A stretch of DNA of 63,723 nt, filler included, from Folioceros fuciformis (lineage: Eukaryota), in NCBI GenBank assembly GCA_049999805.1. It is 23 parts of 23 records of this genome, joined end to end, with 100 filler letters (N's around TTAATTAATTAA, not from the genome) between each part and the next. Parts side by side here need not be neighbours in the genome. Positions count along the whole stretch, not along the records: positions 36,689 to 39,886 come from JBNGIO010002769.1; 22 more parts are not named here. One strand, 5' to 3'. The translations under genes and the position numbers were made by a program. Positions within the stretch are counted from its first letter, which is position 1; every line of letters begins with the position of its first letter. Below, piece after piece: positions 38 to 52,837 of this stretch. A model generated the notes under the pieces. That model saw only the letters and a program-made list of their open reading frames with translations, did no database searches and was not told the DNA's origin.

Positions 38-718
38 ATGGCCAACCGGTTGGAAGGACATCAATGGCATCAAGGCGCGCAAGCTGCAAGGAACATCATT
101 GTTGATCAACTTAATCAACATGTGGCTGAATGGATTGCAAGGAATCAGCATCAGCCAGTGCTTGCGTTGGAAGTAAGGGAATCCTACAATACCTTAATTG
201 AAGTGATATTCCCTGACCAGCACCACTTGATTATAGCCCTTCCACCTCGTAACCCTGATAATCTCCCAGAAGTGCGCGTACAGAGAGCTTTTGATGGAAA
301 TGGTCATCATAGAGGCTTTCTAACAACACACGTTGCACCTGCCACAAGTGTCACTCAATTAGTCAATAGAATTGAGGCACATCAAGAGCACATAGATACA
401 CGTTTCAGCAGTATTTTGAGTCAAGTCTCTGCAACTAGTATAGATGTAAGAGACTTGCAAGAACAGATAGGGCATTTGGACTTTAAACTTCTTACCTTGT
501 TAAAGCCACAATTACTTGCTAACCCAGCACACAGGGGAGTAGCCTGTAAACACACTAAGAAAACAAGTAAGAAGCATATGTTTGGTGTCCCAAACTCTTG
601 CCCTTCCTGCTTAGTGTATGCATTCAATAAGTGGGAGATTAGAAACCAAAGAGTAGCAAACAGAGTTAGAGAACAAGAGTTTGCTATCAGACCTGCTAAT
701 GCTGTAAACATACTCTGA
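38..718 (+). CDS. Extra ORF (ORF0) upstream of copia gag; coiled-coil-like segment and C-x9-H-x7-C-x2-C motif; unknown function
   Basis: Intact 226-aa ORF ending 113 nt before the gag ATG (832); homologs in the same position at 12979-13698 and 10695-11365. Confidence 0.8.
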   Translation: MANRLEGHQWHQGAQAARNIIVDQLNQHVAEWIARNQHQPVLALEVRESYNTLIEVIFPDQHHLIIALPPRNPDNLPEVRVQRAFDGNGHHRGFLTTHVAPATSVTQLVNRIEAHQEHIDTRFSSILSQVSATSIDVRDLQEQIGHLDFKLLTLLKPQLLANPAHRGVACKHTKKTSKKHMFGVPNSCPSCLVYAFNKWEIRNQRVANRVREQEFAIRPANAVNIL

Positions 719-831
719 CTCTGCTGACCTGATAGCATTTAATTGAAGTCTCAAAGGTTGAACCCCTGCAACAGCCATTATAGAATCTTAGTATATTGGG
801 AGTAGCTAACCCAACATACAAAAGAGGAAAA

Positions 832-3800
832 ATGGCAACCACAGCACCAGACCCCTCTACTAGTCTAGGTGGGGAAGGGTTCAAAGAAAAAGATAGGTTT
901 GGAGGGCAGGATTACGACATATGGGTAATCCGAATGAAAGGGGCCCTACAAAACAAGAAGTTGTGGAAGGTGGTCAATGGGGATGAACCAGCCCCAGCGG
1001 CACCTGCAAATCCAGCACAACCTACTAATGCTGAGAGAAGAGCACAAGAAGCATGGGACTCAAAGGATGAAGCCGCCATGTTTCTAATCAGAAGTGGTCT
1101 TACCTCTGAAATGCTAAGACAGACTTCAGGATGCATAACCTCAGCAGAAATCTGGACGAGACTTCAAGACCTATATTCAGGCAGCAATCAAACAAGTCAG
1201 ATGACAGCAATGAGAAATTTGCAACTAAACAAGTCAGATGACAGCAATGAGAAATTTGCAACTATGTAAAATGAGAGAAGGAGACTCAATTGAAAAACAC
1301 CTTGGATACTTCAGAACACTTGTGTCCAAGCTAGAGAGTGCTTCAAATGATATTATAAAGGATGACATGCTTATATTATATTTCCTGATATCCTTACCAG
1401 ATTCCTGGTCACACTTTGTGACATCTTTTAATGCTTCCAAGCTCCAAACTAAAAAACTAGCAAAGGCTTCAGGTGTTACCCTACCAGAGACAAGCTTTGC
1501 TGAGTTAGTGGGAGCCTTATTACAAGAAGAAGCAAGCAGATCACATGGTAGACGATCTGGTAAGCAGCAAGCCCTCTTCACATCAAATAGAGGACGTGGA
1601 GGAGGAAGACCCTTTAACAAGGGTGGTGGTAGTACCTCAAGAGGTGGTGGTTCTCAAGCACGAGGAACCAACCAGAAGAAGCCAAAAAGAACAGGAAACT
1701 GCAATTGGTGTAAATTACCTGGTCACTGGGAGCGTGAGTGTAGGAAAAAGCAAGCTGGTGTTCCTCGCAAGGAGGGTTCGACCAGCGCTGAAACTCATGT
1801 GGTTGTGAAGAAACAGCCAACACCCTCAGCTCTTACAGTCGGTACTACAGTTTTTGCAACAAGTTCTTTCTTGTATCCAGCCAGCCTGTCAGCAAATACC
1901 AAGAGTAAGCCTGTGTTAGATTGGTATCTAGACACAGGGGCAACAGCCCACATTTGCTTTGACAGAGGTTCATTTCAGACATACAAAATTTACAATGATC
2001 AGTATGTATACCTAGGTGATGATAGATCCCTAGTGTCTCCAGGTCGCGGCTCAATAGACCTGCCAGTTCCATCAGGACATGTGTTAACACTGCATGATGT
2101 TTACTTTGTTCCTGACATGACACGTAACCTAATTTCAGTTAGGAAGTTGAATTCAGACAACCACTGTCACATTCTGTTCACACAAACAGAATGTCAAGTA
2201 CTAGATGCTTTTAATCATAGCAGAATACTTGCCTATGGGTCCTCAGATAGAGACTTGTTTCGTCTCCACACAGACAGAAGTGTACCAGCATCATATTTGA
2301 CACAAGATGCAACTGCTGTATCTGCAAAACAGATAGAAAAATCTATGTTATGGCATAGGAGATTAGGTCATCCACATTCAGCAAAACTTCAGAAGCTTGC
2401 TGTAAGCAATCTTTACCAGGATGGTCCTATAGGGCAGTTGGCATCACTCCCATTGTGTGAGTCTTGTGTTCTTTCAAAGAGACATTAGGCAGCCTTTAAG
2501 AACAAGGCCCCACATAGAGCCTCTGAAGTTCTTGAGCTTGTACACACAAATTTGTGTGGTCCTCTTTCCCAGCCGTCAATAGGAGGGGGAAAATACTTCC
2601 TGACCTTCACTGATGATAAAACCAGGTTTGTTACAACCTACATTGTTAAACAGAAGAGTGAGTGTTTCAGTCACTTCAGACATTATATCAAATATGCTGA
2701 AAGATGGACCGGAAGGCAACTCAAAATCTTGAGATCAGATAATGGGGGAGAGTTCATTTCTGATGAATTCCAATCTTACTGTGCATCTCAGGGAATAGGA
2801 CGCCAGCTGACAGTGGTGTATACACCTCAGCAAAATGGTGTTGCTGAACGTGAAAACCTAAGCGTGCAAGAGATGACATCGTCATTATTACATCAAGCCC
2901 AGTTACCATTGCCATACTGGGCAGAAGCTTTAATGACTGCAACTTACCTGAAGAATAGGTTGCCTACTTCTTCTGTTGAAGGCTAGACTCCTTTTAAAGC
3001 TTTCACAGGGCGCAAGCCTTCTATTCTCCATCTGCGCACATTTGGCTGTGTTGCATATGCCTTTATACCTAAGAAAAAGAGGAAGAAGCTGCAAGACAAG
3101 GCCAAAAAGCTATTAATGCTAGGCTATACAGAGGGCATTAAAGCCTACAAACTGTATGATGTTCCCAAAAACAAAGTTGTTTACGCCAGAAGTGTTACCT
3201 TTGATGAAGGCCGCACTTGGGTTTCAGTGGGAGCTTCCCAAGATGTTGGTGTTGCTTCCCTTGATGATGATGTTTCATTCGATCAGTTTGAACATGGAAC
3301 ACAGGTTGTCCCCTTGGAGGACATTGCTCCTGCAGGAGGGGAAGATCCAGCCGCTGATTTTGAAGTTGTTGATGTTGATGACCTTGCGGTGGCAGAACCT
3401 GCACCTGTCAATGAACCAAAACATCAGCAGCAGCAGGGCATACAGGACCAATATCCTCCTGCACAACCTGCTCCTGATCTAATTGACCTTGCAAACTTAC
3501 CTGCTGATTTAGATAACCATGATGCAGCCCCTGACCCAGCTGCAGATCAGCCTGATGAGCCCGTTGCAGAGCCTCGGCGTTATCCTACTCGCCATAGGCA
3601 GCCTCCTGATTTTTACCAAGCTCCGGACTTCAGGACTGCTTCTTCTCATGTCGCTGTCCATGCTGACACTCCATCTCTTGATCCCATCGAGCCTCAATCA
3701 TATGAGGAGGCCTTAAGCAGACCTGATCATAAGGAGAGGGAGAAGGCAATCCAGTCAGAATATGATTCACTGATTGAAAACGGTACATGGGAATTAACAG

Positions 3801-5282
3801 ATCTACCTCCTGGCCGGAAGCTGGTTACCTGCAAGTGGGTCTTCAAGCTGAAGGTGAAGGCTGATGGTACCTTTGATAGGTACAAGGCCCGTCTAGTTGC
3901 AAGGGGCTTCTCACAGATTCCTGGAGTTGATTTCCTTGAAACCTTTTCTCCAGTTGTGAAGCTGTCCACCCTCAGGATCACCCTTGCAATATCCACATAC
4001 TACAATTATGAACTGCAGATGTATGACGTTAAGACAGCCTTCTTGTATGGAAAGCTGGATATTGAAATCTACATGCAGCAACCACCTGGTTATGTGGTGA
4101 AAGGAAAAGAACATCAAGCTTGCAAACTCATTAAGTGCATTTATGGCTTGAAACAGTCAGCCATGAAATGGAATGCAGCCCTAGAAACAGAGTTGCTAGA
4201 ACTAGGGTTTATTAAAAGCCAAGCTGACAGCTGCCTCTACATTTACCTCAAAGGGACTGTCACTTGCTATCTGGCTGTCTATGTTGATGACTTGATTCTG
4301 TCAAGTAACAGCCAAGAGTTCATAGTTAGTATCACTGATGTACTAGCTACGAAATTCAAGATGAATTGCCTAGGACCCCTACAAAGCTGCTTAGGGATCC
4401 ATGCGCAGAGGAACAGGAAGACACGGGTGATGACACTTACACAACCTCATTACCTCTTAGAGTGTGCAGAGCAATTAGGGCTCAAGGAAGCCAAACCTGT
4501 ATCCACACCCATGCCTTTCGGTCAGAAGCTCAGCAAGCTCATGTCTCCTACAACTGAAGAGGAAAAGGAGCAAATGAGGGGAGTCCCTTACAGGCAGGGT
4601 GTAGGGAAACTTATCTATGCTAGCAATACAACGAGATTGGAAGTGGCATACACTACTAGTGTGCTCTCGCAGTTCCTTGAAAACCCCGGAAAAGAACACT
4701 GGACGAACCTGAAGCGTGCCTTCCGTTATTTGAAGGGCACTGCCAAGATTGGATTAGCATACAAGTATCAAAATGGCAAGCAACTGGATTTGGAGGTCTT
4801 TACCGATTCAGACTATGCTGGAGATGTGGACAGTAGAAAATCAGTCTCTGGCTACATAATTTCAGTTGCTGGTGGTCCCGTGTGTTGGTCCAGCAAAAAA
4901 GCAGCCAACGGTGGCTCTGTCTTCTACTGAAGCGGAGTATCGTGTCTTGACAGCAGCTGCGAAAGAGATAGTGTGGTGTAAGTTATTGTTCAAAGAGCTA
5001 GGTATCCAGATACCTAGTTGCACAACAATTCACACTGACAATCAGGGTTCGATGGCCTTAGCCAAAAATCCAGTGTTCCATGCACGAACAAAGCATGTTG
5101 AAGTGGAGTACCACTACATTAGGGGACTGGTGACAGAAGGGAAGATTAATTTAAAATATGTTCCGACTCAAGACAACCCGGCGGACATACTTACAAAGTC
5201 TTTGAGCAGAGATGCTCACCACAGACACATGCAACGTCTGGGCATGGGAGAGGCAGAAGCCCTCCTGGACAGTTCTGACTAA
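832..5282 (+). mobile_element. Ty1/copia gag-pol (GAG-PR-INT-RT-RNaseH), near complete, disrupted
   Basis: FKEKDRFGGQDYDIW gag N-terminus; CNWCKLPGHWEREC knuckle; WYLDTGAT protease; LWHRRLGH; LRSDNGGEF/YTPQQNGVAER integrase; YKARLVARGF and [24 protein letters not shown] RNase H. Lesions: 37-bp duplication, stops at 2486 and 2984, extra A at 4895-4900. Confidence 0.97.
1190..1263 (+). repeat. 37-bp perfect tandem duplication frameshifting gag
   Basis: AAACAAGTCAGATGACAGCAATGAGAAATTTGCAACT x2 (ATGs at 1201 and 1238). Confidence 0.95.
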
Positions 5283-36688: not shown

Positions 36689-37212
36689 ACCGCTCGCGCC
36701 TTGGAGGTCTTCCACTCCCCTGCGCTTGCTCGACCCTTACGCCCTACGCCGTCTGTCCCGTCGTCCTGGCGCTTTCGCCTTCCTCAGCCACTTTACGCTT
36801 CAAGTTACTCCTGCTCCCCACGCTTCCGGATACTAGACAAAGCTCCCCTTTCTCTAGGGTTTTTATACCCTGCCTGCTTTCTCTTCTTACCGCCCATCGG
36901 GCTACCACCAGTCGTTCCTCCGGCGACGGTTGCCCTGCCGGCTACCGTCGCCCCGTCGTCTCGGCCCTTACTTTGGCCTACCTGAATGTTCTCAAGGACT
37001 CGAGGGTCAGGGAGGCACTCGCTGCTTCCTCCTTCCTCCTTGTCCCGATCTCTAGTACACCCCAAACCCCGAAGCCCAAGGTGGACTTTGGGTATAAACA
37101 CCCTGGTCTTACTCGCTTACTAAGCCGATTCGCCTGTCCCCTCACAAAAAGAATGACAACCTGCTCATTCCGTCGCTCAAAATGGGGATTCCGAAAGTTT
37201 TTTTCGTTCACA
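36689..37212 (-). mobile_element. 5' terminus (type C) of ORF-bearing element, inserted into gypsy RT
   Basis: TGTGAACG at 37212 interrupts YRGLNRV; continues into sequence homologous to 54877-55160 and 60230-60274. Confidence 0.88.
36850..36871 (-). promoter_or_regulatory. Candidate TATA box upstream of the element ORF
   Basis: GGGTATAAAAACCCTAGAGAAA; counterpart GGCATAAAAACCCTATAG near 54987. Confidence 0.4.
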
Positions 37213-39761
37213 AACTCGATTGAGCCCTCGATAGTCTATGCACAACCGCCATCCTCCATCTGGTTTGGCAACTAAGAGGACTGGAGCACCAAAGGGTGAC
37301 ACAAAAGGTTGTACAAAACTCATCAACCTGTTTTTTGATCTCTTCGTTTTCCATTGTAGATGTCTTGTAGGGCTGGATACTAACCGGTTTGTGGCCTGGC
37401 AGCAACTCAATGGCATGGTCCACGGTTCTTCGAGGAGGGAGCTCCGTGGGTTCAGCAAACACATCTTGATACTCCTGGAGCAGGTCCTTCATGGGCTGTG
37501 GGAGCTGGTCCTCGTGAACCTTGGCTTCTGCGGCCCTTGACTTCGCAGTGCCTTCTAAGGGAAGCACCTTCTTGATCTTTGCTATGGACAGGAATCTGTC
37601 CATGGCAGTTGCTTTATTGAGAGCAGAGACAACAAACAATTGCTTGTCAGGGAGGTACTGTTCCCCCTGCATGACGTATGTCTGATGGTCTTGCAGGAGG
37701 TGAACAACGTTTTCCTTTCAGTCTACCTCCAGTTGATTCGAGTGACTAGCTAACCAAGGCTTGCCTATGATCAGGTTGTGGCAGAGCGAGGGCATCACGA
37801 TCAGCTTAAGAACCTCCTTGAACCCTCCTGGAAAGGTAAGCTATGCTTCTGTCCACTATTCTCTACTTGTCTCCTTCTCGCCTAGGGCTGTGATCACTGT
37901 GGAGACCTAACCTGTGTCCTTGACAGACAGGCCAGCTCTTTCTACAGCTGCCTTGAACACATAATGATGACTGGCCCCAGAGTCAAGCAACCCTGTGGCC
38001 CGGATTTCGGCCAACGACACCTCAAGTTTGATAGGTATGTGAGCTAACTAGCATGCAGTAACTGATCCAAGTTTACTTGCAGGATCAAGGATGGCCGCAG
38101 CTAGAGTGGGTTCACTAACCTCTGCAAGGGTTATGGCGTGTCCACTCTTGACAGAGGTTGGGGAGACGCCGCTCCTAGTGGACTTGCCTGTCTCCTTTAG
38201 CCAGCTTATGATGTCCCTCCTGAAAGGGCATGATTTCGAACCATGTCCGGAGGCTGAGCAGGTAAAGCACTTGCTGGCCTTCTTGTAGTCTTCCTTCTCT
38301 TCCTTCGTGAGGATTTTGAAGGTGGGCTTCTTCTCTGTGGCGTTGGCAGACTTGCTCCACTTGGGCTTGGGAGGGCTTGTTGAGGAAAGATGCTTGTACT
38401 TGTTGGTGCCGTAGTTGATGGCCATCTTTATGGCCTCTACCATGGTTGTGGGGTTCATCTGGTTCACGTCTACCCACATCTCGAACTTTAACCCGTCGAT
38501 GAACTTCTCAATTTTCTGTTCCTTATCCAACCTAGGCATGTCCAGAGTAAGTTGTAAGAAGTTGTCACAGTACTCTTGAATTGTGCCTTGTTGGAAGATC
38601 TTCCTGAACTGCTGATACAGGTCCTTGCGGTGGTTCACTGGCAGGAACTATTCGACGAAGATTTGTCGAAAGACTGGCCAAGAGTAGATCGGGGACTCCA
38701 TGCCGAGGTCGACCTGTTTCTCCCGCTGGCGCCACCAACGGTATGCATACCCCTCCAATGACATGACGCAGAACTGGATCTTCTGCAAGTCATCTTTGTC
38801 AGAGGCAGCAAGATACTTGTCAATTTTGTCTAACCAGTCGTGGACGCCCTGGGCATCCTTGGCTCCTCCATCGAAGGTAGTTGTCTTGATTTTTCGGTGG
38901 AGCTCCTTGTCCAGCTGAGGCCTGGGTTTGAACAAGTAGTCCTCACCTTCTTGTGCTTTGCTGTTAGTTCTTCCCCGTTGGTTCTCCTAGTGTTCATACC
39001 TCATCAGCTATAGGCGCCTGACCATGGCCTTGAGGTCCTTGTTATCCTTCTCACCAGGTAAGAGTTCCACGACTAACCTCTTCAGTTCCTCCTCTACTGT
39101 GCTCAAGTCACTTTCGCTAGGAATGGTTGGCGTGGCCCTTGCTTCCTTCCTACCCTCAGAAGCCTGACCCAGGGGTGCCAAGGGAGTCGAATGGTGTGTG
39201 CCCTCAGCTGACTCAGTGGGCCTGGATGTCTTATGGCAGGGTGAGAGTGGCGAGGGTCCTGGGGGTGATATCTGCTCCAGCATCTTGAGCACACCCTCAA
39301 GCTGCCTTTCCAGCCGTGTCTGGCAAGGCTGGGAGACCCACCCACAAAAAGTGCCGCTTGATTTTAGATTGCATGATCGTACTCCCAGGAGACCAGGCCT
39401 CCACCAACATCGCGATAGATCCTCGAAATGACATTGTTGTTTGCAAGAGAGCCTGGGCTCCAGCTGCCTCATCACACTTAATTTGGAAAGGACCATATGC
39501 TTTCAAGAAGACATACGTTGGGGGGCAGCCCGTAGCTTGTGTCACCCAGTCCTCCAATTCGTCCACGGTGGGAGGACCTCCCGATAGAAGCCGCCCCACG
39601 ACCGAACTGGTATCAAGATTGTCTTCCTCTTTTTGAAAATAGCGCGCTTCGGTGAGAACGTCCGCCAAAGGACCGAGCTGTAAACTTGAGCCCTCTTTTG
39701 CTAAACCTGAGGCATAATCTTGAGAAGAGTCCGCCCGTACCTGATCTTGCGCATAGTCCAT
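37213..39761 (-). mobile_element. Ty3/gypsy gag-protease-start of RT, with N-terminal DUF4283-like domain
   Basis: TFDGG..WLDK..AYRWW capsid; CFTCSASGHGSKSC knuckle; LLDSGASHHYV protease; [13 protein letters not shown] and [29 protein letters not shown]. Confidence 0.93.
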
Positions 39762-39986
39762 CTCAGGTGTCCATACCTGCGGTCATCCTCTGTAGCGGCT
39801 TTTGTCCGGCCAACGTTAAGAGGATTAGACTCCGTCACCACCGCATTTTTCCCCCGCACCTTCTGTTTATTAGGACACAAACCGACNNNNNNNNNNNNNN
39901 NNNNNNNNNNNNNNNNNNNNNNNNNNNNNNTTAATTAATTAANNNNNNNNNNNNNNNNNNNNNNNNNNNNNNNNNNNNNNNNNNNN

Positions 39987-40070
39987 CCAATGTCTCAACG
40001 ACAGTGGGATAAGTGTGGCCACTAAAGGTGGAACCCGTTGGCAATCAGTGCCCGGGGTTTTGCCTCCACA
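39987..40070 (+). mobile_element. Element terminus type A
   Basis: Matches 53404-53487. Confidence 0.9.
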
Positions 40071-41149
40071 CACCTGTTACCCAAGTTTGTATAGATATGC
40101 TCCATCGCGTTTCTTTAAAGGCAAAGGTGTCGGCGCAACCCTGTACATGCACATTGTGAAGCTTTCAGCTCAGCTCTCAGTCTCACACTTGACCCGTGTT
40201 AGAGAAGGCAAAGAGGAGACGTCCGAATCCATAATCCAACAAGTGGGAGTGAAGGAGTATTGATGTTGGCATAATGAGATTATGGTTATATAATATCCAA
40301 TTTCATATAGTGTGTATAGACTTAACATATCTTACCTCTTCCCTAGGGTTACGACTGTTAGTAATAGTTACACCCATTCATAAACAGTTAAGTTCAAGTT
40401 TCAATGTTTCGTGTTACTCTCACATATAAATATACACAATGTTATTTTATAATAAATCTACATCTATATGTAATTTCTTAGTTGTGCTCTTGGTTTTCTC
40501 CTCGCCGTTGCCTGGTACTTGCAAGCCGTCGTGTACGCAGATGGTGCCTTCAGTGCTATCCTTTTCATGCCGCCAGGCTCACGGCGCACCACTTATGTGA
40601 TCATTTCCGATATGCCCAGCTTAGTCACGTATGTCATGTCCCATGAGTTCTCGCCGGGTGCCTAGTCGAGTTATGGCCTAATGAGCTAGTGAGTTTTCAG
40701 ACATGGTTTCTCATGGGTTTCCTACCTACGTATCATATGCGGGTTTTCTACGAGGTTTCTTACCTGGTGTTTTAGCCTAATTACCTTGCTACGTTTAACC
40801 AACTGTATATGCCAGCTTAAATGTCTCTTATGCACCTTGGCGCCCAGTTATTATCACGACATACATACATACTATGGCCGTAGGTCATCCATATAAGTCT
40901 TATCATTTATAAACTTGACAAACTCCCTTCCTCACAAGGATAGGGAAAAACACTCTAAGTCTGCTAGACAATATCGGCCCTGAAAACATTCGTGGATCAC
41001 GAGATGTGCCAAGCTAACACACAAAAAGCATACATTGATAATGATGGAAAGACACAAATAGGAGTAACCCGTAAAACGGTTACAATGGTTCATAGCTATT
41101 CTTAAATAACTAAACTAAATAACCTACTTGGTATAACGTAATGTACTGT

Positions 41150-41185
41150 ATATGTTAAACCATAAAACTCTAACACTCCCACTCA
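41150..41185 (-). mobile_element. PPT and start of 3' LTR of the copia at 42290-42742
   Basis: Minus strand TGAGTGGGAG followed by TGTTAGAG at 41175; far end of the LTR not resolved. Confidence 0.65.
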
Positions 41186-41261
41186 TTAGTTATACGATGA
41201 TAACACTAAACGAAATTAGGATGAACGAATATTTATTATGTAGGCCCCAATATCTATACGC

Positions 41262-42038
41262 GTGAATGCCCTCAGTCTCCAGCTCATGTACTGGATTCAC
41301 TCAGACCGCTTATGTCACCTCGTCTTCCTTGTGAACTTAGGACACTCTCGATTAAGGCCGCTACAGCCACGCTTGCCGTTTGTTGCTGAACCCACGGCAG
41401 GAATAGCTGGAGCTCCCATTGCCTTATCTGCTTCTGAAGAGACGGAATACCAGAGTGTTGAGGGGAAGTTGCGAGACGGTGCTGAATCTGTTCAGAGTGC
41501 TCCTGCTCCTGTCCACGTAGCCTTGCGCCTTGTGTGTGATTGCCAGTCGCTTGTGCCACCCAGCAACCCAGTACACCTTGATACTGTGCAGGCATGGCCT
41601 GCTGCAAAGGCAAATGACTTCTACAACATAACTGTGTACTGGAAGAAGCGGGTGAAGGAAACGGGGAGCAGAGGGGACAGATTGGCACATGAAGTGGAGC
41701 ACCTGAAGAAGAGGACAGCTTTGGCAAAGAACAGCTCCTGCACTTATCCTGACGAGATGGAAGACAACATAAAACTGATGAAGATGGGTGAAGAAGGGGG
41801 AGGCGAGGTGATTGTTCCCTCAAACTTCAAACCCAAGGCCTACAAGTTGCCTATCGGTGACCTATACAAGACTGAGAGGCTGGTGACTGACCGGAATGGG
41901 GTTGACAACCCTCAGACTCCTGAAGTCTATTGTTGTATTTTAGTAGGGATCACCATAAATAGAGATAGATGGTATAGACAGGGCGGACATGGTGGGAATT
42001 TCATTTCATTCTATGGTAAGGACCTCCTGCACATCTAA
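41262..42038 (+). CDS. Antisense accessory ORF between copia RNase H and PPT; unknown function
   Basis: 258-codon open frame (first ATG 41286), opposite to pol and not overlapping it. Confidence 0.55.
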   Translation: MNALSLQLMYWIHSDRLCHLVFLVNLGHSRLRPLQPRLPFVAEPTAGIAGAPIALSASEETEYQSVEGKLRDGAESVQSAPAPVHVALRLVCDCQSLVPPSNPVHLDTVQAWPAAKANDFYNITVYWKKRVKETGSRGDRLAHEVEHLKKRTALAKNSSCTYPDEMEDNIKLMKMGEEGGGEVIVPSNFKPKAYKLPIGDLYKTERLVTDRNGVDNPQTPEVYCCILVGITINRDRWYRQGGHGGNFISFYGKDLLHI

Positions 42039-42289
42039 TTTAGCTCCCACTATTTGTGTGGTTTGAGAAGTGCTAGAACTAGCCCTGACTTTGTAACACA
42101 TGTACGCAGGGTCTGAGAAGAGGATGTACGGGGAGTCTGACATGGACTGGGGCCACAGGGACAGCAATGAAGACATAGCTTACGCAGAAACATAAACAAC
42201 AATCTACCTACCCATCAAGCTCCAACGAAGATGGCAACGACTAGCCCTCTAGGAACAGACTATGCTTTCATATGCTGAACTTATCCTTC

Positions 42290-42742
42290 TCATGACTGAC
42301 TGCTGGACATGGTTATGTGACCAGACTCTAAGACTCCAAGTAATTCCTTGAAACGGAAATGTTTTGCTCTGGCTAAGGACTTGGTAAGTATATCTGCTAC
42401 GTTTGCATCTGTTGGGATATATTCAAGCTTGATCTGACCTGAACTAACAGCGTCCCTGATAAAATGATGATGCACCTCGATATGTTTGGTCCTCGCGTGG
42501 AAAACAGGATTATGTGCCAAAGCCAATGCAGACTGATTGTCGTAGTAGATAGTTTTGGGTTCATGTTGAACTTGGCCCACATCTTCAAGCAGTCTCCTTA
42601 GCCAAATTGCTTTCTTGGCTGCTTGAGTTAAAGCTGAATACTCAGCTTCTGTTGATGACAATGACACAGTGGATTGTTTCTTCGAGGACCAGGTTACTGC
42701 ACCACCAGCTAACAAGAAGGCATAGGCTGACACAGACTTCCT
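42290..42742 (-). mobile_element. Ty1/copia RNase H
   Basis: [43 protein letters not shown]. Confidence 0.95.
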
Positions 42743-42842
42743 NNNNNNNNNNNNNNNNNNNNNNNNNNNNNNNNNNNNNNNNNNNNTTAATTAATTAANN
42801 NNNNNNNNNNNNNNNNNNNNNNNNNNNNNNNNNNNNNNNNNN

Positions 42843-45554
42843 CAATGAGTGTAGAAAAAAGAAGGCTGGAGAGCCTCGTAAACCATCCCGACCTACTACC
42901 AATATTGTAGTTAATGACAAGCCTGTAGAATCCAACAAGCCAGTGGTTAAAAGCTAGTCATTCTCTAACCTATTCTCTGAATAGGTATCATTCACCAACT
43001 AATTATGCCCTATACGCAACAGCAAAATGGTGTCGCCGAATGCAAAAACTAGAACTTGATGGGAATGACGCGTGCTATGTTGTTGTGGTCAGGCCTCCCG
43101 TCGCCATACTGGGCAGAAGCCATAGTCACTGCTACTTACATCCTTAACAGATTGCCCACAAGTTCTCTTGTTGATAAGACTCCTTTTGAGATTTTCTGGA
43201 AGCAGAAGCCCAGCCTTCTTCATCTCAGACTCTTTGGCTCAAAAGCCTATGCTTATGTTCCTGCAGAGAAACGTAGGAAATTAGACAACTGATCAAGACA
43301 ATTAGTTTTTGTTGGCTACAATGAAACTGTGAAAGCCTACAAGCTCATTGACCTTGCTACCCTACAACCAGTTCTGGCACATTGTCACTTTCCTATAGTC
43401 TTTGCAATTTTCTCACAGTGCTATTCAGCATGATTCCCTTAAGCAACCATCCACTCCATAAGAAGCCAGTGATGTAGAAGGCTCTATAGGTCTCCTGTCC
43501 TTATATCCTGTGGATGCTGACGGGCCAGCCATGCTTGTCCTTGACTTACCAGCAGGGAACCAGAACCAAAATCACTTTGAACTTGTTGGCGTCATCCCTG
43601 CCTAGCATTTACTTGCTGCTTATGTGGACCAGGATCTTGCACAACCCGTTGCAGCAGAAGAACTGATCTTAGATCCTGATCCATATGGGTTCAATGGCTT
43701 ATTTGCATATGCAGATATGGACATTGAAAACACTCCAGAAAATTTGCCAACTGACTTACCAACTGCTGATGACTGTATATACTTGCCCTTGCTATTGCCC
43801 TTGACCCTCCTCAAGATGAAGCTACTAGACTCCGTCGTTCTTCTCGTCACAGACCTCCACCTTCCAACTAAAGGGAACCTCCATATGGCAGCATAGACTT
43901 TCAACGACACACAGCTTCAACTGTCTCCTCCCCTCTAGCAGTTTCTCTTGAACCAGCTACTCTTATTGAGGCCTTGACAGGCCTAGACAAAGCTAAATGG
44001 AAATTTGCTATCGATGATGAGTATAATAGCCTCATCAAAAATGGCACTTGGCGCCTGGTTCCTTGGCTTGCAAACATGAAGGCTATCACCTGTAAATAGG
44101 TGTTTAAAAATAAGCTGAATGCTAAAGGGCACATAGCTTGTTACAAAGCAAGATTGTGTGCCACGGGATTTACCCAAATTGCTGGTTTAGATTACCAGGA
44201 GACTTTTTCTCCAGTGGTGCGTGCTCAGTCCATCCGCATTATCTTGGCCCTCGCTGCTGAGTATGACTTGAGTTGCAGCAGATGGATGTCTGCACGGCTT
44301 TCCTCCATGGGATTCTTGAGGAGGAGCTGTACATGGAGCAACCGAAAGGGTATGTTGATCCTACACATCCAGACCACGTTTGCTTACTCATCAAGTGCCT
44401 ATATGGATTAAAGAAGAGTGCAGAGTGCAGAGCGCTGGTATAAGAAGTGTGACATAGCCTTGAAAACCTTGGGTTTTGAACAGTGCAAAGCTCACTCCAA
44501 TGTGTACATCTTCCGAGATGGCACCACCTATGTCATTCTAGGTCTCTACATGGGTGACGTGATCCTTGCTTCCAGTAACCCAAATATCCTGTGACATGTA
44601 AAGGATATGTTAAGGAAGACGTTTGAAATGACAAATAGTGGCGATCTACTTTTCTGCCTGGGGATACAAGTACTTTGAGTTAGATTGGAGGGGCTTCTCA
44701 TTATCCATCAACACAAATATGTTGCTAAGATATTACACAAATTTAACATGGGACAAGCTCATCCCTCTTCTACTCCAGGCTGTGTAGGAGCTAAGCTTAC
44801 CACATATGAGTGTCCTGTGATAGGTGCTGATCGCTTGGAAATGCAGGATGTTCCCTATCGCAAGGCCGTTGGCTGTTTGCTTTTTGTTAGCAATTGCACG
44901 CGCCCTGACATCCAACATTCAGTCAGTACAGTGTCCCAATTTTTGGATAACCCTGGTCGTGCTCACTGGACTACCGTGAAACGTATTCTGCGTTACCCCA
45001 AAGGCTCGCCTTATATTGGGCTCTGCTATCGACGAGGAGGACACCAGACCACTCCGCTTACTCTTGAAGGATATACCGACGCTAATTGGGCCTCGGATAG
45101 TGACTCCCGTAAGAGTTTTTCCACGTATGCTTTTCTCCTCACTGAGGCTTCCGTCAACTCGAGCTGCAAGGAGCAGATCAGTATCGCCCTGTCAAGCACT
45201 GAAGCTGAGTACAAATCCCTTACAGATGCTACTAAGGAAGTGGAATGGGAGCGGTCTTTCTTACATGACCTTGGACGAACACAGGATGGTCCTACTCACC
45301 TCTATTGTGACAATCAATCTGCCATCGCCCTTGTTGCCAACTCCTGATTCCACGCTCAAACGAAACATATTGAAGTCCATCACCATTATGTTAGAGATAC
45401 TGCTGCAAGGGGGTTAGTTAAAATTCTCTATGTGCCTACTGAGAATAACACAGCAGACATCCTAACAAAGGCCCTACCAAAGGACAAGCACCAGAAGCAC
45501 ATGCAAGCACTTGGGCTGGTGAACTTTCAGCCCTATTTCAAACCTGCAAATTAA
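42843..45554 (+). mobile_element. Degenerate Ty1/copia (gag remnant, deleted INT, RT, RNase H); related to 20769-22956
   Basis: [50 protein letters not shown]. Confidence 0.93.
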
Positions 45555-46261
45555 CATATTGCAAACAGGACTTACGGGTGAGGCTCGAGTCCTCAGTATT
45601 GTGGAGTATAGTTCTTCCTTCCGTGCTCTTATGTACCTATCGTCAGGCGACAGGGAGGGTTAGCCACCACAACACAACAACAGTCTGAACAATCTGGAAG
45701 CAACTGTCTGAAACATAGGTCCGGTGGATGAAGCTCGACGTTAACCTAATCACCTGCATTGGTTTCCCCCGACTACTATCTCTTCTTCTTGCAGTATCTT
45801 CAGCAATCCAAGTAATCTATGTGCCTCCTGTAGCGGCCTAATCAAGCGGGTTTCGTCCAGCACAAGGTCACGTTGAACAGCACTTTCCAACCGCCAACCC
45901 TTAAGCTGGTCTCCACCACATGGGTTTCACCCCACTCTTCCTCTGCTGGTGGACGCTTAGCAGGGTGAGCTCTCCTAGCCCCGCTGCTACTCTTATTCCA
46001 CTTCGATGAACGACTCCCATGCATTGTATATAGCAATATTGCCCTTACGATTTGGGTGCACAGGAAGATGGCTATGAGGAGCGTTGCGTAGGCTGATGCG
46101 AGATTTATTCTCTGCTCCATCTCCTTCCAGCTTACACGTCCTCTCTGAGTGATGAGTGTTGCTCATTACGCCTCGCGTGCCCATCTTCTCCTTGTGTTCG
46201 TCCTCACTTGCTTCGCTAGACCCGTGCTCGGTCTCCTCATAACTCCTAAGCTCGTCTCGCT

Positions 46262-46919
46262 TAAGGGAGGGTGTTCACGGGGTAACCTCACTCGCTTAGG
46301 GTTTACCTCTTGGTTAGTTAAGTTTAGTTTAATTATTCAAGGGACACTTTAGCGAAGGGGTGCCTAGCGTAGATATATACTCTCTTTACATGACTTTGTA
46401 TTATTATTGTTTTATTCTATTGCCTTATGGTTGTTCATCTCCCTTGCTCTCCATTTATATCAAGATGTATCGGCTTGTGTGGTTGATGCTGACGCTGGAC
46501 CGTATGTCTCAAATGGTGGAGGGGCGATTGGAGCAATGCCTATTGGCGCAGAGCCACTTGAAGAGGATGGCGCATAAGCGCCCACACCAGTCGCACCCAG
46601 CTAAGAGCCAGAAGGTGCCTGCCCAAGTTGGTATCTGGGTTTCCGGCCATGGTGGATACACAGATTGGTAGCGTATAAAGGTAAGATTGTCATTTTTCTC
46701 AAGAGTCCTGTATTCCTGCGGAAAGGTTACATCTTCTCACGGGAAGGGGCGTAGATTTGAAGAGGTGCCTACAAAAGGTGCGAGTCTACAATCCCTGTGC
46801 AATGTAAGCATCTTCCAAATTCCTGTGCCACTTCGTGATAGTGAACGCGACCCTTCAAATCTCCCTCTTGTTGCACGCAGGTGCGTTAAGCTGGGAGATG
46901 GTGAAATCGCATGCCAACA
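46262..46919 (+). mobile_element. PPT and probable 3' LTR
   Basis: TAAGGGAGGG followed by TGTT at 46272; candidate AACA end at 46919. Confidence 0.6.
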
Positions 46920-47525
46920 TTAGAAAATGATGTTGTGATCACGCTCAGCAGATGACGGTGAGAGGCAGCCTGGGCATCATCGTCTTCCTAAACTTGATGG
47001 ATGCAGCCCTTCTTCCAATTGTTGTTACCAAGCCTAATGGAATATGGCTTGTTTGGGTGTAGGGTATGCTTGGCTTTGGCCGGTCTATTTCTAGCCATTT
47101 GCTGGCGCGAGTCTGTATGCAGGCGTGGGGGAAAAGTATCAATAGAGGAACATCTGGAGAGCAGGCCATGCCGTTTGAGGCGATCCCTTTCTCTGATGAA
47201 CCTCTTTATGATAAAGTTGTTATAGCTCCTACTTCCCGGTTGCTTGTTCCTGCGAGGCATTTTGTAATTTCGTGCGCCTTGTCTGCATGCTACCCAGCAG
47301 CAATGCAATGAAAGTCTTTTCCTTACACTCTACTTTTTATTGTTATCTATAGCTAATGTGGTCATGTAGGTGTTGAAGGATTGTCGGTCACATGAACCAA
47401 GGGCCATGCATGGGAAATGGTTATTGGGTTTTGTGCCCAATCAACTCTTGCACTACATGCATCTACCACATTAGATTTTGAAAACACAAAGTAGATTAGA
47501 TTAGGATAAGATATCAAAGCATGGG

Positions 47526-47537
47526 GCTCTGATACCA
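47526..47537 (-). promoter_or_regulatory. Primer binding site (tRNA-iMet) directly after an LTR end
   Basis: Minus strand ...TTGACA TGGTATCAGAGC; the LTR extends to higher coordinates from 47538. Confidence 0.9.
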
Positions 47538-48548
47538 TGTCAATTTGCTTAGAATCGCTGGGACAACATAACATAATTATTGCGGTCAAAGAGAATATCT
47601 TATATACATATGTCTTGTTATCTAAGTGACCTTTCGATAGCTATTTAACCCTAAGGAGTGGTTATATAAATAACCCTAAGTTATTCCAACTGGGACAAAA
47701 GTGCTCAAGATAGACAAGTCTTGAACTAGCTAAGAAACATGAGTACAAGATAAGAGTAGAGAGAGCACATCTTCCCATCTTCCCAAAAACGCCCTCGACA
47801 CACACACACACACACACGAAGGTCTCCAAGGCTAATAGATTGGTGCCTCTTTAAGCAACGGGAAGCAATGCATGTCACTTGGCCAAGTCACTAGGCACAT
47901 CATTGAAGGTGCCTAGGCCGATGATGTCCCCCAAAACCTATAGAAGGCATTTGGAAATTCCTTAAGCTCAACAACAAGGCTGAGAAGGGGGGCAATGATA
48001 GAAAGATGTACCCCAATTGCCTCTTAAAACAAAAGTAGAGAATCTTGACATTTATAAAAGCACGTTTGTCTGAGGTGATATTGTACCAACTATGCCCCTG
48101 TCTTATCAACATATCTAGCTCAAATTTGCTTTCATGTTTCCAACTTCTAAAGAAGCTAAGCTAAATTTCAAGTGTAGGGTGTGCTCTGTAATTTTCTACT
48201 CTTGCAATAATTAATTATACTTCTAGAGGTAATTACCGAATCATAATTATCATTTCGTCTACCATCAATACCTAGGAGTACCTACCACCAAAATTTAGGA
48301 GTACCAACCTATCAATATTATGCTCATATACTTTCTTATTTGAAAGTGTTTTTCCCTTCATTTAGGTTAGTCTTGGTCATCCTAGGTGGGCTTCCCTCCA
48401 TAGATCTTATTCTCAATGAAGACTATATCTTTATCTACAACATAAGTAACTGCGTATCCAAGCTCAACATGTAATTATTATGTTTCCATGAAAATACATA
48501 TTATTCAAATCTCATTTAAAGTACATTGTGTATATTTGTAACATATTT

Positions 48549-49478
48549 TCATGTCTCTCCTTTCAACCATGGATGATCCAATACATCCTTAGCTTTGGGG
48601 CGTAAAGAAGGAGCATCTTGCAACATTCTTAACATAAGATCTGATGCTAGGTTGGAAAAATATTTTCTAATTTGACCTAATCTTGAAGGTGATAAAACAC
48701 CTACATGTTGGAGAAGGTCGTTTTTAGTTGGGAATAAAGTTATATATGAACCACAGAGTATGCTATAAAGAAGTAACCCTAAGGTCCATATATCAACTTG
48801 AGATCCATAAGATTCTCCTTTCAAAATTTCAGGAGCCATTAGTTCTTGTGTGCCAATAATTCCCACACATGATTCGTCAGTCAAGATTGGACAGTGTATT
48901 GCAGATCGAAAATTAACTATGACTATGGAGGAGTTATTGTTTTCATTCAAAAAAAGAATATTTTTGTGTTTCAAGTCTCTATGTACAACACCATGAGTAT
49001 GGCATACATGAATGCCTGTTACAATCTCCTTAAAAACTCTCCGCACATTGTTCTCATCATATGTAAAAATCCTAGGAAATAAGGGTCCTCCCTTGTATAT
49101 ATTTGAGATCATGTGAATATGATATCTATCTTCAAATACTCCCTTTAAATCTATAATGTTGGGATGTTTTGGAAGAAATTCTTGAAGAGCACTCACCTCC
49201 CTTTGCAAATCTTGTGGTTCTAAGCCTAATATAAAGGCATCTTGCTTGTTAATAGTCTTGCAAGCTAGTTCCTTATGTGAGTTTTTGTCAATACAAAAAT
49301 AGATTTTGCTAAAAGTGCCTTCACGATATATCTTTTGTTGAAAAATATCGTATTTTCTTCTTACATGTGTTCTTAACACCTTAGGGTTATTTTCAAAGAC
49401 TTGCACTATTTTTGGATCAGGTGAAAAAGGATATATAGGAAAAGGAAATTTCTTGTACACGACAAAAGGAAACTTCAT
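48549..49478 (-). CDS. Intronless CDPK/CAMK-family kinase domain, probable pseudokinase or retrocopy
   Basis: LACKTINK, REV...LPKHPNI, HRDLKHKN, NFR in place of DFG, APE, DIWTLG, VLDHPW; no EF-hands. Confidence 0.85.
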   Translation of the reverse strand: MKFPFVVYKKFPFPIYPFSPDPKIVQVFENNPKVLRTHVRRKYDIFQQKIYREGTFSKIYFCIDKNSHKELACKTINKQDAFILGLEPQDLQREVSALQEFLPKHPNIIDLKGVFEDRYHIHMISNIYKGGPLFPRIFTYDENNVRRVFKEIVTGIHVCHTHGVVHRDLKHKNILFLNENNNSSIVIVNFRSAIHCPILTDESCVGIIGTQELMAPEILKGESYGSQVDIWTLGLLLYSILCGSYITLFPTKNDLLQHVGVLSPSRLGQIRKYFSNLASDLMLRMLQDAPSLRPKAKDVLDHPWLKGET

Positions 49479-49500
49479 TCTTGAATACTAGTTAGTAGGG

Positions 49501-51404: not shown

Positions 51405-51467
51405 AATCTGCTGACCATCTTTCGTTGGTAATACAGATTAACAAACTTTACACCAGAATTCATACAG

Positions 51468-51687
51468 TTGAGCACACTGCCCCTCACAATTGAGCACACT
51501 TGCCCTCACAATTGAGCACACTGCCCCTCACAATTGAGCACACTTGCCCTCACAATTGAGCACATTGCCCCTCACAATTGAGCACACTTGCCCTCACAAT
51601 TGAGCACACTGCCCCTCACAATTGAGCACACTTGCCCTCACAATTGAGCACACTGCCCCTCACAATTGAGCACACTGCCCCTCATAA
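51468..51687. repeat. 22-bp tandem repeat x10 in the gypsy 3' UTR
   Basis: TTGAGCACACTGCCCCTCACAA and TTGAGCACACTTGCCCTCACAA variants. Confidence 0.97.
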
Positions 51688-52837
51688 TGTATCAACTGCT
51701 ACACACATTGGACTAAACCATTGCCCCTCAGGCACTGCTTCTAGTGGAGGCTCTAAACAAAAAATATGCCACCCATCATTGCACCTATCACACAACAACA
51801 TGCAATGATCATTTCCAGAAGCTCCACAACTTGTACAAGCAAATCCCTTCTTCGGTACAAAAGCTTGCACATCAATTATTGGGTTTAAGTGAGGTAAATG
51901 ACATGACGCACAATTTTTCATGTGTTCCAAACAAGTTGTACTATCTTTCCCCTCCAACTCCAAAACTCCATTCAACTTCACACTTCTCACCCTTAATATT
52001 ATCCTACTCATACTTGTATCAATTGTTGTCATTGTCTTCCTCTGCAAATATACATAATCTCCAACTTCAAACTTTTTCACCTTAGGTCTGAAATGCCCAC
52101 TCCTTGTCTTCATGTACCTCAACTCATCTCTATGTTGAGCTATTAACAAGTTATCCATTGCCATAGGCATAATTCTCCTAAACAATTTTGCTCTATGTGT
52201 AACTATCTTCAACCAGTTATTAGGATCATCCAGCTCCACTATAGTATTCACCTTGTCTTCTAACATCCCAGATAACTGTGGTGTACATCCAAACAACAAC
52301 ATGTATGGTGAAAACTTTCCCAGCGATGCTTGCCTACTCATCCTATAACCCCTCGTAAGAAATGTCAACATCCTATCCCACTCACTCTTATCCATACCAA
52401 ACAATACTTCCTCAAAGCATTCTTACATGTCTGTACCATTCTTTCTGCCAAACCATCAGCCTCCAGATGATTCCTTAAAGTTACACTATGATCAATAAGA
52501 TACTCATTTAAAAATTCATCAAAATCTCCCATAAATTCAGTATCCTAATCTGTCAACACTTCTGCACAAGCCCCAAAAACATTCAACACATGATTAAGAA
52601 ACGCTTCTTTAATATCATGTGACTTCTTCTCTCTCAAAGGCACCAAAACTATCCACTTAGAGAAATGTTTTATCATCACCAACACATATATAAAACCTCT
52701 ACACTTGACTAGTACCTCTCCGGCAAAATCCAAACTCCACCTATAAAACATCCCCCTAATAGGTAGCGGATGAAGCTGAGAAGTTTTGCCCGAAAAACTT
52801 GCTTTCACCCTATCACAAACCTTACAAGTAGACACCA
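51682..52837 (-). mobile_element. Ty3/gypsy integrase with C-terminal PHD finger
   Basis: CKVCDR..LHPLPI..FYRWSLDFAG..HFSKW..EVLTD; ADGLAERMVQT; FEVGDYVYL; CTSC...LLCDRCNDGWHIFCLEPPL..VPEGQWFSPMC. Confidence 0.93.

Follow-up and report, generated by a model that had tools for sequence, protein, structure and literature searches.

A LINE ORF1 fragment joined out of frame to a Ty3/gypsy gag in one contig of Folioceros fuciformis: probable nested retrotransposon debris

Does the genome of Folioceros fuciformis hold an LTR retrotransposon whose Gag has taken up the RRM-like domain of a LINE ORF1 protein, or only a single junction between two unrelated elements? The question is raised by one contig of 3,198 bp (G000:C2769, positions 36689-39886 of the window), where a first-pass annotation had seen a DUF4283-like domain running into a Ty3/gypsy gag and proposed either a LINE/LTR chimeric Gag or, as a fallback, a one-off recombination in this copy. 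The window, that is, the whole stretch of 63,723 nt that was analysed, consists of 23 small contigs and 22 artificial linkers (44 N, TTAATTAATTAA, 44 N), and adjoining contigs need not be neighbours in the genome. Its long frames with a Pfam match are mostly retrotransposon pieces, and none of its other contigs matches the LINE or the gypsy family described here. The contig, which ends at 39886, is a mosaic of three pieces on the minus strand, namely the 5' part of a LINE ORF1, a gypsy gag-protease-RT start and an LTR-like repeat, with the following features:

39322-39886, minus strand: ORF1 of an L1-type LINE, 5' part only, truncated downstream of WVGLPALP
39321-39569, minus strand: DUF4283-like domain, N-terminal two thirds only (PF14111 profile 2-85 of 124, with the match stopping at the breakpoint)
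39322, minus strand: LINE/gypsy breakpoint, the base at which LINE matches end and gypsy matches start
38048-39322, minus strand: Ty3/gypsy gag, capsid and zinc knuckle, with four in-frame stops (Retrotrans_gag, Ty3_capsid, weak zf-CCHC)
37213-38047, minus strand: gypsy protease region and first RT motifs, with four more stops (from translation and the RT of relatives)
36689-37212, minus strand: high-copy repeat, 5' end only (TGTG...), inside which the contig stops (sharp edge common to matches with unrelated flanks)

Both domain assignments of the first-pass annotation were right, in that a DUF4283-like piece of LINE ORF1 lies beside a gypsy Gag. The peptide it quoted, VVGRLLSGGPPTVDELEDWV...WVGLPALP, is encoded as quoted by a minus-strand frame at 39297-39782, and PF14111 is matched below its curated cut-off (E=1.1e-4, residues 72-154 of 39300-39782; 22.3 bits against 27.2); among five relatives' frames with a DUF4283 match, one exceeds that cut-off (29.9 bits). 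A search of the same genome with the DNA of 39150-39886, in which 40 of 77 candidates were scored, returned 40 matches: the contig itself, 37 of 71-93% identity, none of which extends past query position 567, and two that start at 565. The LINE sequence (ORF1) carries on past the junction in all 28 relatives compared (29 were retrieved; L009 ends earlier). Beyond it these relatives show weak zf-CCHC_4 matches, an APE domain (Exo_endo_phos, E=1.4e-7) and an RT (RVT_1, E=3.9e-20); the APE and RT of ORF2 are absent from the copy at 36689-39886. In a best-hit comparison with solved structures, the relatives' RT was nearest to human L1 ORF2p (E=3e-20, versus 1.2e-8 for R2), and both full-length relatives examined have a short A run at the 3' end and a 15-bp target-site duplication (TSD).

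The accessible part of PMC5203782 presents DUF4283 as the dominant domain of plant L1 ORF1p, associated with zf-CCHC_4. The relatives resemble plant L1-clade LINEs accordingly, with a DUF4283-like domain and then weakly matched zf-CCHC_4 in ORF1, APE and RT in ORF2, an A-tail and 15-bp TSDs, whereas the family is long (~10.6-11 kb) and the contig copy ends inside DUF4283. What had looked like an LTR-like repeat upstream of one LINE copy (L071) was recognised as a neighbouring LINE's RT, and the DUF4283 family is therefore not an LTR element. Judged by the 5' ends of two full-length copies, the first ~120-135 nt of the LINE are missing beyond the contig end at 39886. Since the ATG at 39761 occurs in none of the 29 LINE relatives, and a 1-nt deletion near 39782 is private to this piece (against 10/10 relatives tested), the ORF1 piece is broken upstream of its domain. 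Longer proteins were also searched with the DUF4283 piece, and none of 571 candidates reached E<=0.001, which is weak evidence.

Several further observations concern the LINE family itself. Its length of ~10.6-11 kb and 15-bp TSDs are seen in L068/L101 (G000:C6099, ~309450-320440) and L061/L100 (G000:C5936, ~38855-49490), and the start of ORF1 lies 4.7-5.8 kb from that of ORF2 in the two copies measured. The middle region, scanned in one copy, contains open frames (715 and 797 aa) that have no Pfam match, and the third-position bias of the middle frames is weak (e.g. 119/97/160); the family may encode an exceptionally long ORF1p of up to ~1,900 aa. LINE copies also cluster locally: two stand head to head ~3 kb apart on G000:C6099 (305769-306332, minus strand, and 309569-310133, plus strand), besides L071 with the RT of another LINE directly upstream.

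On the other side of the junction, the ORFs 39008-39502, 38648-38986 and 38048-38647 share one frame with isolated TAG stops between them, as the first-pass annotation had described. Retrotrans_gag (PF03732) is matched at 38051-38647 above its cut-off (E=1.9e-6, 28.4 bits versus 24.1); Ty3_capsid (PF19259) is also matched (E=1.7e-5), and zf-CCHC weakly (E=0.1). All 35 candidates were scored when the same genome was searched with 38650-39340, and of the 46 matches, the contig itself aside, none starts before query position 17, the closest starting at window position 39322. The gag piece is 90-92% identical to five relatives and aligns from position 1362 onwards of the full-length copy L074. The gypsy copy in the contig has thus lost 1,361 nt of the full-length copy, comprising the 5' LTR, the primer-binding site (PBS) and the first ~195 Gag codons.

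Intact relatives make clear what normally stands in this place. Two full-length copies of ~6.6 kb (L074, L075) have TG...CA LTRs of ~400 bp, a PBS, a polypurine tract (PPT), 5-bp TSDs and no LINE DNA, and their paired LTRs are 93% and 91% identical. The PBS of the family begins TGGTATC. The relative L072 has the order gag-protease-RT-RNase H-integrase, and the best match of its RT is that of Ty3 (E=2.9e-31; PDB 4ol8/7q5b). Gene order, LTRs, PBS, PPT and 5-bp TSD are thus those of Ty3/gypsy elements; the contig copy is unlike them in having no LTR, PBS or 5' gag, eight stops and an interrupted RT. Gag sequence extends upstream of the junction position in 18/18 gypsy rows compared (17 places), and the four close copies that were translated show, besides a PBS ~950 nt upstream, a Gag N-terminal extension of their own. 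LINE DNA lies 5' of gag at none of 29 gag-bearing loci, so the further DUF4283-Gag copies that a chimeric family would have left were not found, and the other copies of this gypsy family do not carry the segment, a result that the first-pass annotation had itself named as refuting its proposal.

The gypsy RT is itself interrupted. Matches of up to 97% to the repeat at 36689-37212 begin at 37212 and have unrelated flanks (40 of 246 candidates scored), and its read depth is ~400-3,400, versus ~6-16 for unchanged single pieces. From its TG start and the sharp edge shared by its matches, and with its 3' end off the contig, it most likely represents an LTR from a different, younger retrotransposon that entered the gypsy RT.

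The two pieces meet at 39322, in a single base, C, that is common to both parents. This C falls on the second codon position of the DUF4283 frame and on the first of the gag frame; past the breakpoint the DUF4283 frame stops at 39299-39297, and what the 39008-39502 ORF contains above 39322 is LINE DNA read off frame rather than Gag. The single frameshift that the first-pass annotation placed near 39320 is the breakpoint of two unrelated elements and not a mutation within one ORF; its statement that no LTR or PBS stands between the LINE domain and the capsid was confirmed. In pairwise alignments, no indel is shared near the junction relative to the relatives of either parent, so the LINE and gypsy halves probably never shared a frame. 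We also weighed a programmed frameshift at this point and set it aside: no shift motif of the Ty1 or Ty3 type is apparent, and the point is moot given the eight stops downstream. No fusion protein is made from this junction.

Both halves appear to have decayed neutrally. The gag-pol frame of the contig copy has eight stops from 39010 to 37718, and a 14-nt deletion near 37320 is private to the gypsy piece (against 6/6 relatives). Private substitutions are synonymous about as often as expected, in the LINE piece (4/13 versus 3.9 expected, from the four closest relatives), in gag (13/36 versus 12.3) and in protease/RT (7/20 versus 6.8); the test has low power, with only 13 substitutions in the LINE piece. 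Taken with the stops and private deletions, these counts fit neutral decay of the contig copy. Among LINE subfamilies, differences are concentrated at third codon positions (e.g. 16/10/47), and selection therefore acted on the DUF4283 domain in the LINE lineage.

The junction was found once. Among the candidates scored in own-genome searches from both sides, only the contig 36689-39886 spans LINE and gypsy; the 23-mer across the junction has one match in the 87-Mb assembly at up to 3 mismatches, that assembly being possibly incomplete; and the junction is shared by 0/28 LINE and 0/18 gypsy relatives. The missing 5' and 3' parts of the contig's gypsy copy were also sought across the genome, and no linkable contig was found: L106 has an N gap upstream and an uninterrupted RT insertion point, and L133 stops at its own contig end. 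Nor did the own-genome search, in which 40 of the 77 candidates were scored, yield a contig overlapping beyond 39886.

Direct examples of nesting and truncation in both families exist elsewhere in the genome. At C6373 (~611190-617080; L073:4193 to L098:3081), a copy of this LINE family, truncated at its 5' end, interrupts the gag of an element of this gypsy family; it has an A-tail and is accompanied by a ~26-bp diverged duplication, and gypsy sequence continues beyond the insert. This duplication is long for the TSD of the LINE family, which is 15 bp in two other copies. When 11 close gypsy copies were set against the full-length one, seven (one being the reference) continued through the junction position to their own 5' region, two crossed it and then passed into unrelated DNA, and two began further downstream. 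In one gypsy copy (L034:1-800, G000:C3276) a copia RT frame is joined directly to the gypsy 5' internal region without an LTR, and another (L057) is cut ~70 nt above the same point as the contig junction. Among the 29 LINE copies, two (L007, L009) have ORF1 cut at different points by one and the same AT-rich repeat, which starts with TG; one has lost 5.3 kb internally; and one passes into unrelated DNA ~60 nt beyond the junction position.

We consider it likely that the junction arose by nested insertion followed by deletion with end-joining, as a one-off, non-functional product amid dead retrotransposons. Ordinary insertion would first have brought a gypsy element and a LINE to lie in one orientation, nested or adjacent. 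The DNA from the WVGLPALP of the LINE to the Gag N-terminal extension of the gypsy element would later have been lost in a deletion end-joined with 1 nt of microhomology. A third element interrupts the gypsy RT. The deletion, its direction and its place in this order are what we infer. Had the gypsy element entered the LINE ORF1, a deletion of at least 1.36 kb (1,361 nt: 5' LTR, PBS and 5' gag) would suffice; had the LINE entered gag, ~10 kb would have to be lost. We modestly favour insertion of gypsy into LINE over the reverse, because the deletion is smaller. The flanks able to prove nesting lie off the contig, on the far side of 39886 and past the 3' LTR of the gypsy element.

The 1-nt overlap fits a deletion and a template jump alike, and a one-off recombination at the RNA level, whose out-of-frame chimeric product would have been dead from the start, is the first alternative to weigh. 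The gypsy RT could have jumped to a co-packaged LINE transcript, the LINE RT could have jumped from gypsy RNA to LINE RNA, or a break could have been patched with cDNA; taken together we hold these routes to be unlikely. Same orientation and near-zero microhomology would suit template jumps, and the two halves show similar divergence, with 91% and 92% identity to their nearest relatives, so the LINE and gypsy families may have been active together. Against this, a route through the LTR element requires a second switch to recover the PBS and LTR, and the nested and deleted copies of both families already on hand are simpler precursors. The text available of a study of mammalian L1 (10.1101/2025.02.02.635956) does describe template-switching chimeras, U6/L1 and Alu/L1, that like ours join two sequences in one orientation; those chimeras, however, carry L1 at the 3' end and have TSDs, whereas here the 5' part of the LINE comes first and the ends are off the contig.

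A chimeric read, or a mis-join of two repeats, would be a natural suspicion in a small unplaced contig of 3.2 kb that is repeat throughout and lies within a linker-joined pseudo-scaffold. We nevertheless judge an assembly or library artefact very improbable. A 112-nt piece across the junction (39240-39351; 82 gypsy letters and 30 LINE letters, the latter one below the 31-letter rule for a bridge) was recovered in two runs with 0 differences, at depths of 7.3 and 6.4. Other unchanged pieces have depths of 6.2-15.9, so that the junction piece is similar to them, at about single-copy level; the two runs come from one sample, which may be the source of the assembly, and support the junction without being independent proof of it. 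Among the matches listed for two further runs (X3, X4) no piece crosses the junction, and these are uninformative; no RNA run is among the runs listed. The 1-nt overlap, moreover, would offer an assembler nothing for joining. The read data are thus supportive of a junction that is real and single-copy.

That the contig preserves a once mobile LTR lineage, with a Gag bearing the RRM-like domain of LINE ORF1, is largely refuted and in our view scarcely credible, even though the LINE piece stands upstream of the capsid in place of a Gag N-terminal extension of similar length and the accessible text of PMC5348765 gives a precedent for module exchange in the repeated gains of RNase H by gypsy and L1 groups: the junction was found once and at about single-copy depth, the frames mismatch at the breakpoint with no nearby indel relative to either parent, only profile positions 2-85 of 124 of DUF4283 are present, the segment is absent from all other gypsy copies examined, and the low-power test gives no sign of selection on the contig copy. 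The likeness in length between the lost Gag N-terminus (~195 codons) and the LINE piece (~205 codons from the relatives' start) we treat as coincidence. Just as hard to credit is a variant in which a gypsy RT took up the start of a LINE mRNA to replace its own Gag N-terminus, an in-frame descendant persisting in unassembled DNA or a related species and the contig copy being its decayed relic.

The proposed chimeric family thus fails the tests of copy number and reading frame: what the first-pass annotation had read as a chimeric Gag is a single, out-of-frame junction between halves that appear to have decayed neutrally, and its fallback of a one-off recombination agrees with the data. Each half is of a known kind, and nested insertion followed by deletion would make the junction one of an already known type of nested, truncated debris. 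In the portions available of the respective sources, LTR-less internal fragments in plant genomes are attributed to deletions, larger rearrangements and illegitimate recombination (PMC1940013), and plant LTR copies are mostly truncated or nested (PMC11899658). Nothing essential differs here from such debris, except that the break sets two Gag-like coding regions head to tail. The locus is not evidence for an RRM-like-Gag lineage and, as found, matters little, being one more junction in nested retrotransposon debris; it does caution that head-to-tail repeat breaks and linker-joined contigs can imitate domain fusions. If a mobile lineage were true, it would mean that structural (ORF1/Gag) modules had been exchanged between non-LTR and LTR retrotransposons. 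A narrow look through parts of open-access text found no case of such an exchange between LINE ORF1 and Gag, a result that does not prove absence; module exchange does have a precedent in RNase H, as far as the text available of PMC5348765 goes, and a real RRM-like-Gag lineage would therefore be notable.

Elsewhere in the window, a copia gag-pol is nearly continuous over four consecutive frames (gag, protease, integrase and RT) at 784-4927 on the plus strand. The largest contig carries, on the minus strand, a protein kinase frame of 312 aa at 48552-49487 (E=7e-49) and a PHD-finger frame at 51685-52422 (E=3e-8), the latter beside a 22-nt tandem repeat at 51420-51727.
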